From an uncultured virus (IMG/VR IMGVR_UViG_3300034358_000003) (Duplodnaviria; Heunggongvirae; Uroviricota; Caudoviricetes), in the IMG/VR virus record IMGVR_UViG_3300034358_000003: a DNA stretch of 64,000 bases; one strand, written 5' to 3'. Below, in pieces: positions 37,662-41,587 of the stretch. The translations under genes and the position numbers were made by a program. The notes under the pieces were generated by a model. That model was not told the origin of the DNA and made no database searches. It worked only from the letters and a program-made list of their open reading frames with translations. Numbering within the stretch: position 1 is the first letter of the stretch; each line of letters starts with the position of its first letter.

Positions 37662-37731
37662 TTCCTTTCCCTCTTGGTTTGTGTTGGCGAATTGTACACC
37701 ACTCTCATCATTTGTCAACCCTCACAATGAG

Positions 37732-37763
37732 AAAAGCCCCAACCGATGAGGGTCAGGGCTTTA
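37732..37763 (-). terminator. intrinsic terminator closing the coiled-coil/ncRNA cassette
   Basis: AAAGCCC..GGGCTTT stem plus T-tract on the minus strand. Confidence 0.75.
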
Positions 37764-37770
37764 ATAGGGT

Positions 37771-38116
37771 TCATGCTAACGACAGCTCGGTGCATTGCCA
37801 GCGTCCGTCACGCAGATACGTCTCAACGTGTATCCAAGATTTGGAGAAGCTTTGTATCGATACTGGTTACAACTTTAAAAGGTTGAAGTGGCTCATCTAG
37901 CCTCAACGGCTAACGTCCCTTAATCTTTTAGCTTTACACCTTTAAGCGTTGATCTTTGATCGTAGTCAATGCAGGAGTTAGGCGCCGTACAGCGACGGAC
38001 GCCAAACAATCATATGCAAATGATTAGATTTGGTTAAGATACCATTCTTAATAGGCTCCCCGGATATACCCCCGAGGAATGGGTTGCGTGAATTTAGGCA
38101 ATTCGTCGCAGCATGA
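37771..38116 (-). ncRNA. candidate ~345-nt structured ncRNA
   Basis: No minus-strand ORF; the two ends are complementary; several long-range and local helices; G-U pairs favour the minus strand; AAAG repeats. Confidence 0.65.
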
Positions 38117-38127
38117 GAAAACTTGTG

Positions 38128-38745
38128 TTACGCTTCGATTACAGTCTTGGCGTTAGCCTCGCTCAGAGCGAAGTCAACCTCAAACAAGAAACCGTTGATG
38201 TCGTTTTCCAGCTTCAGGATCACTGCTTCCAGCCCGTTAGGGTCAAGAGGTACGGTGATGTTCGAAGCGGTGTATGGCTTGCTGACAGCTTCCATTTCTT
38301 CTTGTGTGGCCTTGCGTTCCTTACCAACAGCAGCCTGAAGCATGGTGTCGATACGGCCTTGCATTTGAACGTTGTTGTGTTCAACCACCTTACGGGCTTG
38401 ATTCAACTGTTGGGTCAGTACAGACAGAAGAGCACGCTCTTTGTCGATGCTACCTTTGCGTTCAATAGCCTCAGCTACAGTCAGCTCTTTACCGTTGATC
38501 GTGACAGTAGCCACAGAGTTCGAACGGATGATTGCAGTCTTGACTGCCTGACGGCGAGAGATCAGGTCTTGAACCGATTGAAGGTTTGCCTTCAACTGAT
38601 TTTGAGCATCCTGAAGTGCAACACCATTAGTGGTTTTGCCACCAACAGTAACTGTTACGAAGACGCCCTGTCGAGTGGCTTTCTCGATGCGGTCGTTCAG
38701 GGATTTTACTTCAGCCAAAGCGCGTGTAATGGAAATCTGTGCCAT
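38128..38745 (-). CDS. coiled-coil protein (DIP1984/DUF6847-like)
   Basis: ISITRALAEVKSLNDRIEKA..TVAEAIERK..EVDFALSEANAKT; family recalled from memory. Confidence 0.7.
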   Translation of the reverse strand: MAQISITRALAEVKSLNDRIEKATRQGVFVTVTVGGKTTNGVALQDAQNQLKANLQSVQDLISRRQAVKTAIIRSNSVATVTINGKELTVAEAIERKGSIDKERALLSVLTQQLNQARKVVEHNNVQMQGRIDTMLQAAVGKERKATQEEMEAVSKPYTASNITVPLDPNGLEAVILKLENDINGFLFEVDFALSEANAKTVIEA

Positions 38746-38777
38746 TTTGATTCTCTCCTTTGATATTTGATTTGGTC

Positions 38778-38805
38778 ATTGTAGCAGGTTTTCACCTGCT
38801 GTCAA
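38778..38805 (-). promoter_or_regulatory. sigma70 promoter with palindromic spacer
   Basis: TTGACA-16-TACAAT; AGCAGGT/ACCTGCT inverted repeat. Confidence 0.7.
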
Positions 38806-40444: not shown

Positions 40445-41587
40445 ATGACTGAACGTTCTCTAGCTCGGGTTGTTCTGGTTGAAGAGTTGCTGCCAATCGA
40501 AGGCGCTGACCGTATTGAACTGGCTATCATCGGTGGCTGGCAGGTGGTTGTGCAGAAGGGCTTGTACGAGCCAATGCAGACTAAGGCTGTCTACTTCGAA
40601 GTGGACTCGCTGCTTGATACTGAGCGCCCATACTTCAACTCGCTGAGCACTCTGTCGAGCAAGCTTCTGCATGACGTTGATGGCCGGACACATGCACGAA
40701 TCAAGACCATGAAGCTGCGCAAGCAACTCTCTCAGGGCTATATGATCCCACTGTCTGAGACTGGCTTCAATGGTCAAGTTGGTGACGACATGACTAAGCA
40801 TCTCGGCGTAATCAAATACGAGAAGGCTGAAGAAGCGAGCATGAATAACACTGGTGGCATGGGCGTTAAGACTGGTACTTCTGCTTTGGGCTTTCCAAAG
40901 TTCGTCCCAAAGACTGACCAAACCCGTGTGCAAAACATCACTAACCTGTACTTGAAGGCTGTTGCCGATGGAGAAGAATTTGAAGAATCTTTCAAGCTTG
41001 ACGGAAGCTCTCTTACTGCGTTTATTCGTGACGGGGTGGCTGGTGTGGCTAGCCGTAACGTGGGCTTTCGGATGGAAGACGAAAAGCGTAGTTTCCTTTC
41101 TACTCTTTCTCGCTTCGTTGATCATGTGCGGAATCGTGGTCTACGTGCTGCAAAGTGGGAGCGTGTAATCAAGAAGGACGATAACACATTCACACAGATG
41201 GCAACTGAAGCTGGTTTGATTGAAGCGATTCGTCGTGATGGTCGTAACATCGCTATTCAAGGTGAGATGTGTGGTCCGTCTATCCAGAAGAACTTTGAAG
41301 GTCTTGACAAGAACACCTTCTTCTGCTACGACGTATACCTGATCGACGAACAGCGTTACATGCTGCCAGAAGAGCGAATTGAGTTCTGCTCTGATCAGGG
41401 CGTAAAGCATGTTCCAGTTAACTTCACTGGTAAGCTTCAAGCCCCAGATGTTGCTGGTGTGCTGACACGTGCTGACGGCCCAAGTGGTTTGAAGGGTAAA
41501 TTCCGTGAAGGGTTTGTCTACAAGAGCACCAAGCGTGACTTCTCGTTTAAGGCTATCAGCAATGCATACTTGCTGAAGGAGGAATGA
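40445..41587 (+). CDS. RNA ligase (Rnl2/DRB0094-like)
   Basis: N-terminal OB-like IEGADRIE; FPKFVPKTDQTRVQN; KLDGSS; QGEMCGP; REGFV; SFKAISN. Confidence 0.9.
   Translation: MTERSLARVVLVEELLPIEGADRIELAIIGGWQVVVQKGLYEPMQTKAVYFEVDSLLDTERPYFNSLSTLSSKLLHDVDGRTHARIKTMKLRKQLSQGYMIPLSETGFNGQVGDDMTKHLGVIKYEKAEEASMNNTGGMGVKTGTSALGFPKFVPKTDQTRVQNITNLYLKAVADGEEFEESFKLDGSSLTAFIRDGVAGVASRNVGFRMEDEKRSFLSTLSRFVDHVRNRGLRAAKWERVIKKDDNTFTQMATEAGLIEAIRRDGRNIAIQGEMCGPSIQKNFEGLDKNTFFCYDVYLIDEQRYMLPEERIEFCSDQGVKHVPVNFTGKLQAPDVAGVLTRADGPSGLKGKFREGFVYKSTKRDFSFKAISNAYLLKEE

Follow-up and report, generated by a model that had tools for sequence, protein, structure and literature searches.

The stretch analysed here, 64,000 nucleotides (nt) from the uncultured Caudoviricetes record IMGVR_UViG_3300034358_000003 and hereafter called the window, carries on its minus strand a short cassette made up of a promoter, a gene for a 205-amino-acid (aa) helical protein, a structured RNA of approximately 345 nt and an intrinsic terminator. 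The sigma-70-type promoter (38778..38805; TTGACA-16-TACAAT) matches the consensus at 11 of 12 positions and has TG before the -10 hexamer (extended -10). It precedes the gene (38128..38745), which was identified as an open reading frame (ORF) and by a profile match of its product, P0001, to PHROG 1491. The terminator occupies 37732..37763, with the core at 37751-37737 followed by a T-run and the full stem readable across 37763-37732, and it is retained in relatives with differing stem sequences (alignment columns 413-445). The end of the cassette is marked by the promoter of the next transcription unit, which lies outside it on the same strand (37691..37718; 11/12 matches). Promoter, gene and terminator had all been proposed in an earlier sequence-only reading of the window and are borne out here. 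A promoter scan of the region returned 5 promoter-like sites, compared with 1.9 +/- 1.4 in shuffled sequences, and no strong promoter was found between the gene and the RNA, where the sole match was a 9/12 site (38037-38009) in the variable part of the RNA. In the records of KIL phages, a promoter is annotated inside the RNA at a position that differs between phages (L002:3299-3327, L021:475-504 and L032:543-571); the corresponding stretch of the window contains at best the same 9/12 site, in a variable hairpin.

The approximately 360 nt that follow the 205-aa ORF contain no gene; that reading had noted the lack of a minus-strand ORF there. When the 400 nt after the gene were compared with 48 phage records, they were found to be conserved over 96-99% of their length with 70-82% identity; this conserved gap is unannotated in most of the records, and some carry inconsistent small ORFs. 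The 31 homologous gaps are 337-396 nt long, fall into modulo-3 length classes of 13, 9 and 9, and differ by insertions and deletions that are not multiples of three. Their longest ORFs (18-87 aa) change strand and place and share no frame.

Conservation in the gap is that of a folded RNA. An alignment of 33 copies (from 16 GenBank records, 14 IMG/VR contigs, the window, L001 and L002) was reduced to 31 distinct sequences by removal of two duplicates. The core helices were obtained with RNAalifold and manual inspection, followed by pair counts on the alignment. The RNA, measured from the 5' to the 3' strand of its closing stem, is 346 nt (37771..38116), and folding of the single sequence gave -120.1 kcal/mol (z = -3.43), which none of 100 shuffles equalled. 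Across the 31 sequences, the six-helix core has 42 pairs, and 99.3% of the 1302 pair cells hold a standard pair. Changes on both sides were seen at 11 pairs (61 cells), a figure reached by 0 of 500 column shuffles, and when the 3' partners were slid by 1-3 columns as a control, pairing fell to 33-47%. The covarying RNA downstream of the gene, on which the sequence-only reading turned, is thus present among the relatives. The G-U pairs of columns 20/384 and 54/61 are found in 31 of 31 sequences and that of columns 15/389 in 28 of 31; as these pairs never or rarely change, the folded strand is the minus, transcribed strand.

The closing stem, P1, pairs 38104..38116 with 37771..37784, with a bulged U at 37778 and an invariant G-U as the innermost pair. 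Four of its 13 pairs have changed on both sides, and 98.5% of its cells are paired. P1 is the end pairing of the sequence-only reading, which is confirmed. Nested inside it are P2, in which AUUGCC (38097..38102) pairs with GGCAAU (37794..37799), and P3, in which UCACGC (38086..38091) pairs with GCGUGA (37808..37813). P2 is 100% paired, includes one CG-to-UA double change and has equivalents in other lineages. Double changes affect three of the six P3 pairs, with AU, UA and CG in 18, 9 and 3 sequences at one position and CG and UA in 17 and 14 at another. The 5' strand of a further helix, Px (CUUGG, 37834..37838), pairs with CCGAG (37786..37790) and crosses both P2 and P3; it is 100% paired, with GC/GU/AU and UG/UA/CG variants among the 31 sequences. 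Between the 5' strand of Px and the 3' strand of P3 is a small conserved hairpin, ACGU-UGAG-ACGU (37818..37829; 98.4% paired). Immediately after the P3 5' strand there is an H-type pseudoknot (PK-A, 38057..38084), in which stem S1 joins ACCC (38084-38081) to GGGU (38071-38068) and stem S2 joins UCCUCGG (38078-38072) to CCGGGGA (38063-38057). S2 covaries; S1 is invariant in close relatives, and its support is only the recurrence of a knot after the P3 strand in other lineages. The remainder of the RNA includes a variable region of two to three hairpins (37961..38056), which differs in length and sequence among relatives (the indel-rich columns 75-190), and a tract of six 7-8-nt repeats (37918..37960) that reads AUCAAAG, AUCAACG, CUUAAAG, GUGUAAAG, CUAAAAG and AUUAAGG.

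Not all of the pairings proposed from the single sequence fared as well as P1. The 5' strand of the proposed helix A (37992-38003 with 37800-37811) falls in the variable insert and is gapped in 23-29 of 31 relatives, and its 3' strand shares nucleotides with the covarying P3. In helix B (37967-37973 with 37791-37797), no pair has changed on both sides, two of the seven pairs are broken (in 11 and 19 of the 31 sequences), and the helix competes with the covarying P2 for GGCAAU. The model of a pseudoknot or switch built from A and B is therefore not supported; the idea of a pseudoknot stands with other helices, namely PK-A (38084-38057) and the core itself, which is pseudoknotted because the 3' strands of P2 and P3 lie between the two strands of Px. 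Among the local hairpins, 37815-37834 contains the conserved 4-bp hairpin described above and can be kept. The one at 37833-37845 loses to Px, as the G-to-A change in column 331 breaks the hairpin (leaving CA in 3 sequences) and is compensated in Px (AU in 3). Those at 38008-38025 and 37898-37912 exist, as hairpins of the variable region. A conserved, strand-specific, pseudoknotted RNA of approximately 345 nt is encoded after the 205-aa gene.

No known RNA accounts for it. A search of the whole 64 kb against Rfam 15 at the gathering score returned nothing, inside the RNA or elsewhere, as the sequence-only reading had anticipated for the RNA, and with E values up to 10 allowed, a 600-nt stretch around the RNA yielded no more than chance-level terminator-like or snoRNA-like (small nucleolar RNA) matches. 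Over 22 other loci, the only Rfam matches were flanking tRNAs and a single skipping-rope RNA; none lay within the RNA apart from a tRNA nested in one locus, L087. Literature searches found no description of the RNA or of the protein. In the six searchable supplementary files of a large csRNA catalogue of candidate viral structured RNAs (PMC10690425), the contig identifiers of six cassette loci are absent; that catalogue may still include all or part of the RNA without a name.

The same arrangement was found in phages that are only distantly related. IMG/VR yielded 27 T5-like and 13 distant loci, and then 33 further loci in 10 clusters. Lineages were counted as 30 (20 + 10), with the Otagovirus group and the T5 group entered once each: the 30 Otagovirus-type relatives were counted once with the window, L041-L067 once with L034, L070 as L071 and L080 as L079, and two partial matches to single queries, L081 (P0153) and L115 (P0146), were left out. 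In every distant record opened (Pseudomonas phage Bitten, T5-like Spc35, Bacillus BM15, Vibrio AG74, Klebsiella NDO71, Erwinia Desertfox, Clostridioides phiCDIF1296T and Xanthomonas XaC1), 290-640 nt free of annotated genes come after the cassette gene, and in the 30 lineages examined that gene is followed by an RNA of approximately 300-440 nt. The linkage of gene and RNA thus spans phages that share nothing else nearby, including Otagovirus/Flaumdravirus, T5-like, Vibrio, Bacillus and Klebsiella phages, Erwinia and Xanthomonas jumbo phages, a Clostridioides phage and uncultured contigs. Within the T5 group (23 unique sequences of 28 copies) the RNA is nearly invariant, and judging from column counts of 3 sequences each, one P1 pair seems to have changed from A-U to G-C. 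In three related lineages, a small ORF whose start resembles a lipoprotein signal peptide lies between the gene and the RNA (positions 1-270 past the stop codon in L098, and also in L084 and L089).

The fold recurs with the gene. A closing stem of 13 bp or more, ungapped and with a span of 280-460 nt, was found in 20 of the 30 lineages, compared with 12% of 300 dinucleotide shuffles, and usually starts 7-63 nt past the stop codon. At its inner end the 5' strand reads ...CG and the 3' strand UG..., which makes the last P1 pair G-U. The shared core has the order P1-P2-P3 ... Px5'-P3'-P2'-Px3'-P1'. With a descriptor of P1, P2, P3 and Px, 14 of the 30 lineages exceeded 66, the top score among 300 dinucleotide shuffles; scores of 0-59 were obtained from the first 20 lineages when their sequences were reverse-complemented. 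The descriptor hits in the window (58) and in Bitten (55) are exactly the helices supported by covariation. Px sequences are wholly different between lineages (CCUGG/CCAGG, CCAAG/CUUGG, CUAGG/CCUAG, CCACU/AGUGG and CUUGG/CCGAG) and covary within a CCNNG/CNNGG pattern, and the flanking AAAUCC and GGC-UG motifs are kept while the helix sequences change. In other lineages, an H-type pseudoknot with an A-rich third loop follows the P3 strand at a distance of 0-4 nt. It scored at or above the 95th percentile of shuffles (25) in 12 of the 19 lineages tried, two further lineages were accepted by eye, and the geometry differs in the T5 group.

The repeat tract is also shared. Over the 30 lineages, AA[AC]G motifs are spaced by 7 nt 36 times (1.6 expected), by 8 nt 17 times (2.0 expected) and by 14 nt 22 times (2.0 expected), and occur in runs of up to 6, where the maximum in shuffles was 3. 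The repeat unit is n-U-Y-A-A-A-G, most commonly UUCAAAG (17/135 instances), and AAAG-poor lineages contain related units such as UUCAAU or UUUAAG. Taken together, these observations make it very probable that a genuine new RNA family is linked to the 205-aa gene.

The protein partner belongs to a large family that has been misnamed. P0001 matches PHROG 1491, labelled 'tail fiber protein', with E = 3.2e-71 (residues 1-204 aligned to positions 2-208 of the 211 in the profile). That label lacks support, as the gene is found among early, tRNA-region or replication-region genes and its helical-dimer model matches no solved tail fibre. There was no Pfam or NCBIfam match to P0001 at E values up to 1 and no sequence match in the PDB. 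The family is present in 746 phage records (tblastn) and has 2195 representatives of 50%-identity clusters at E values up to 1e-3, nearly all of approximately 205 aa. An AlphaFold model built from 60 diverse members has a predicted local distance difference test score (pLDDT) of 93.4 and consists of long helical hairpins and a small sheet. When two copies were modelled, the homodimer score was 0.67 (best control 0.00), contacts agreed at 97% or more and partner pLDDT was at least 89; the mark used for homodimers is reached by 20 of 30 solved homo-pairs and by 1 of 23 solved single chains. The protein is therefore likely, on the model, to be a symmetric homodimer.

A search of solved folds with Foldseek gave 3KDQ, which we take to be the DIP1984 protein, as the best match (E = 6.9e-3, probability 1.00, template modelling scores 0.46/0.60, root-mean-square deviation (rmsd) 11.4 A, 13% identity); it was returned by a profile search with E = 0.1. 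The likeness to the DIP1984/DUF6847 family suggested in the sequence-only reading is accordingly weak. In addition to this fold match, PF20935 (DUF6847) matched 1 of 60 family members (E = 0.0046) and is present in 16% of the members of the Atlas cluster at rank 30 (score 0.88), and P0001 itself has no match to it in Pfam or NCBIfam. Only uncharacterised phage proteins were matched in BFVD. One other candidate, Rad, an anti-retron protein of T5-like phages, is not the cassette protein; in the available passages of its preprint (bioRxiv 10.1101/2023.03.15.532788) it is a 189-aa protein with primase/helicase and TOPRIM domains. The ORF71-75 numbering and the 8-kb deletion in the accessible parts of that preprint could not be mapped onto the SP15 cassette, and the passages available from the Nat Commun version (PMC11555353) do not mention ORF71-75.

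The cassette is frequently found among tRNA genes. Fifteen of 20 distant loci have tRNA genes on the same strand within flanks of 1-1.5 kb. In L087, the RNA contains a tRNA (1821-1891; 61 bits with Rfam), positioned after its 5' domain and before the repeat tract, which lengthens the RNA to 437 nt (1663-2099); processing of this tRNA would split the RNA into two pieces joined by P1-P3. In Klebsiella phage NDO71, an annotated tRNA-Cys (L037:2177-2252) overlaps the 5' strands of P1-P3. It was not reported by the Rfam tRNA model at the gathering score, and is probably a false tRNA annotation of the cassette RNA. A skipping-rope RNA (RF02924, 63 bits; L076:842-929), a phage-linked RNA whose function is not known, is located approximately 270 nt upstream of the cassette gene in another lineage.

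The stretch was also found in RNA libraries. The stretch of the T5-like locus L059 is present in 13 RNA runs, of which four were examined, all as assembled contigs. In one RNA immunoprecipitation sequencing (RIP-seq) library, the RNA is in contigs of its own (1843-1902, depth 3833, and 1873-2207, depth 831), separate from a contig containing the gene (166-1871, depth 328) and one that starts downstream at 2219 (depth 477). An adapter junction lies at 1842, and P1 spans approximately 1848-2204. In a second study, a contig ends with an adapter at 2192 and the next starts at 2229. These contigs fit a discrete RNA cut at the base of P1, without proving one.

Of the 46 phage records that the region matches, 45 are named Pseudomonas phages, mostly with Pseudomonas syringae hosts, and the best identity is 85.7%; the matching records that were inspected are classed as Otagovirus or Flaumdravirus. 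All genes around the cassette are on the minus strand, and in the window and its relatives the cassette is approximately 1-2 kb upstream of a primase/helicase gene. In KIL1, a putative RNA ligase gene (L002:1-75) lies approximately 2 kb upstream of the cassette; on the corresponding side, the window has a 380-aa ORF on the opposite strand (approximately 40445-41587, plus strand). Just upstream of the cassette gene in Pyxpy01 is a 74-aa ORF (L001:3103-3327) labelled 'smpB: SsrA-binding protein'. Pfam gives no match for it and the window lacks a homologue at the corresponding position, so the label looks wrong. Phage phiPsa267 (MT670417.1 / NC_073686.1; matches H72 and H77) has two places that match the RNA, on the strand opposite to that of its relatives, which may be the effect of a rearrangement or of assembly.

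As the RNA is conserved, strand-specific, absent from Rfam and linked to the gene across otherwise unrelated neighbourhoods, functional coupling of gene and RNA is likely on comparative grounds. The explanation that we favour, with a probability of roughly 0.55 as a whole, is that a co-transcribed protein and RNA cooperate as a new ribonucleoprotein. Promoter, gene, RNA and terminator would form one transcription unit with two products working together. The first would be the dimeric all-helical 205-aa protein, and the second a stable pseudoknotted RNA of approximately 345 nt, which cleavage at the foot of the closing stem would free from the 3' portion of the transcript. In this RNA, a rigid core of nested P1, P2 and P3, the H-type knot after P3 and the crossing Px would hold out a central tract of 6-12 tandem 7-nt repeats, which could serve as a multivalent binding platform with the co-encoded protein as its partner. 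The complex may then act in trans on a target that is universal to bacteria and linked to tRNAs or translation, possibly in counter-defence. That the RNA and the protein bind one another in a ribonucleoprotein has, in our judgement, about even odds or slightly better. We infer that cleavage at P1 releases the RNA, that the protein is bound most plausibly to the repeat tract and that the target is common to Gram-negative and Gram-positive hosts. Any one particular role is doubtful, and the structural cage, decoy or anti-defence functions put forward in the sequence-only reading are guesses.

Several observations count against this explanation. The descriptor failed or was borderline in 16 of the 30 lineages, some of which were rescued by eye only (T5-like phages, with a bulge in P2, and L074-L076). 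L096 and L078 were not rescued, and in L084 and L089 the RNA seems to begin after the inserted small ORF. The repeat is weak or altered in some lineages, with 0, 3 and 2 AA[AC]G motifs in L074, L075 and L076, respectively. ARAGORN found no tRNA or tmRNA (transfer-messenger RNA) gene anywhere in the 64-kb window, so the link to tRNAs is not universal. Assembled contigs of the kind examined for L059 cannot give true ends, strand or level, and could reflect DNA carry-over. Finally, the protein family is not basic (mean net charge -1.4 over 60 members; eight to eleven Lys/Arg positions are conserved), and Pfam, NCBIfam, PDB sequence, profile, Foldseek and BFVD searches revealed no known RNA-binding domain.

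The near-neutral protein without a recognisable RNA-binding domain suits the most serious competitor, which we consider clearly less probable than a ribonucleoprotein. The RNA, alone or with a host factor, would be a sponge or decoy that uses its 7-nt repeats to titrate away a nuclease or RNA-binding protein of the host, and the gene would be linked to it only through the shared promoter or through stabilisation of the gene's mRNA by the folded 3' region. Known sponge RNAs such as CsrB and RsmZ consist of tandem short motifs on a folded scaffold, which is the build seen here, and the extra small ORF between gene and RNA in three lineages indicates that adjacency is not strict. However, gene and RNA are together in every lineage examined despite wholly different neighbours, which shared transcription alone hardly explains, and a plain stabiliser needs no conserved pseudoknotted core of approximately 350 nt.

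Far less probable is that the cassette RNA belongs to the translation system as a highly divergent tmRNA-like or tRNA-like molecule. The order of paired ends, long helices, a pseudoknot and an open tract with stop codons would fit, as would residence in tRNA clusters, and the 'smpB' label on the 74-aa neighbour and the tRNA-Cys label on the 5' domain of the RNA, each in a single record, point in the same direction. However, ARAGORN reported none and no RNA gap has an Rfam tmRNA, tRNA or RNase P match, not even at E values up to 10 in the window, and the RNase P models likewise matched nothing in the 22 other loci. Instead of a 7-bp acceptor stem there is a closing stem of 13 bp in the window and 12-21 bp elsewhere, lacking a conserved CCA on its 3' side, and the 31 relatives share no frame that could encode a tag peptide. 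The product of the partner gene has no SmpB match in Pfam or NCBIfam, the 'smpB' ORF lacks both a Pfam match and a counterpart in the window, and the tRNA-Cys was not reproduced by Rfam.

Iterons are typically short tandem repeats, and the window and its relatives carry theirs approximately 1-2 kb upstream of a primase/helicase gene. A DNA-level element such as a replication origin, a set of iterons or a packaging site, located near primase/helicase and polymerase genes and using the 7-bp repeats as DNA-protein sites, is nevertheless highly improbable. On the opposite strand the invariant G-U pairs would read as A-C mismatches, compensatory changes maintain pairs up to 340 nt apart, the cassette is elsewhere in tRNA clusters and not beside replication genes, and the stretch was found in RNA libraries. 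Least credible of all is a decayed gene or a set of small unannotated protein genes in the gap, since the short hypothetical ORFs annotated in Psxphi15, UNO-G1W1, 16Q and psageK4 vary in strand, frame and place, no gap ORF longer than the 18-87 aa given above or shared in frame was seen, indels ignore the triplet and substitutions follow the paired helices.

One specific form of the ribonucleoprotein reading concerns tRNAs directly and would make the cassette the source of a new, ancient and widespread class of phage ribonucleoprotein. The invariant AAAG of the repeat is complementary to loop positions 32-35 (C-U-U-U) of tRNAs with anticodons that start with UU (Lys, Gln and Glu), and the 7-nt length of the repeat is that of an anticodon loop. 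The protein dimer and the RNA scaffold might present antisense sites that capture, shield or mark tRNAs, for example against anticodon nucleases of the host. We regard this as a long shot; if true, it would explain the setting in tRNA clusters, the tRNA nested in L087 and the spread over phages of Gram-negative and Gram-positive hosts.

Few large structured RNAs come with a dedicated protein (RNase P, tmRNA, the signal recognition particle and some others do), and each of these has opened a field. Here, a pseudoknotted core backed by covariation is strictly linked to a protein of unassigned fold class, and the protein family comprises thousands of sequence clusters and reaches the T5 group, where genetics and biochemistry are easy. 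The cassette is located in tRNA-rich regions, which recent work treats as counter-defence islands, and could therefore be an overlooked player in phage translation control or in escape from tRNA-targeting immunity. Annotation also stands to be corrected, as the gene is currently recorded as 'tail fiber protein' and the RNA as nothing, as spurious small ORFs, as a promoter or as a tRNA.

Among known systems, the solved protein 3KDQ from Corynebacterium diphtheriae (DUF6847) is the best fold match of the cassette protein but has 153 rather than 205 residues, with an rmsd of 11 A and 13% identity, and as neither protein has a known function the likeness explains nothing yet. The type III toxin-antitoxin layout of ToxIN-like systems differs in that the cassette RNA is downstream of the gene with no terminator between them, and its repeats are 7 nt long and inside a unique fold, in contrast to tandem repeats of approximately 36 nt that precede an endoribonuclease toxin gene and are set apart from it by a terminator; this comparison is one of layout, made with no PADLOC or toxin search. 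The T4 stable RNAs C and D (species 1 and 2) are non-tRNA species in a tRNA gene cluster, presumably processed with the tRNAs. Like them, the cassette RNA would be a stable RNA of unknown function in a phage tRNA cluster, but they are approximately 120-140 nt with a tRNA-derived shape, whereas it is three times longer, pseudoknotted and accompanied by a partner gene. CsrB/RsmZ, bound by CsrA, and the 11 triplet repeats bound by TRAP share with it regularly spaced copies of a short motif on a folded RNA; the motif here is n-U-Y-A-A-A-G with a period of 7, on a larger pseudoknotted scaffold that is tied to a phage protein gene. ROOL and GOLLD, which occur in phages and prophages, and OLE are likewise large, phage-linked RNAs with folds supported by covariation and a biochemical role that is not known, and for ROOL and GOLLD cage-like self-assembly is reported in the accessible part of a preprint (bioRxiv 10.1101/2024.12.08.627333). 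The cassette RNA has no sequence or model match to them in Rfam 15, is smaller and is strictly paired with one protein family. A further parallel is tmRNA with SmpB, an RNA of approximately 350 nt with paired ends, long-range helices, pseudoknots and a dedicated small protein, sometimes encoded by phages among tRNA genes. However, the tRNA-like domain, T-arm, CCA end and tag frame of tmRNA are all missing from the cassette RNA, and the partner here is a predicted all-helical dimer rather than the SmpB barrel.

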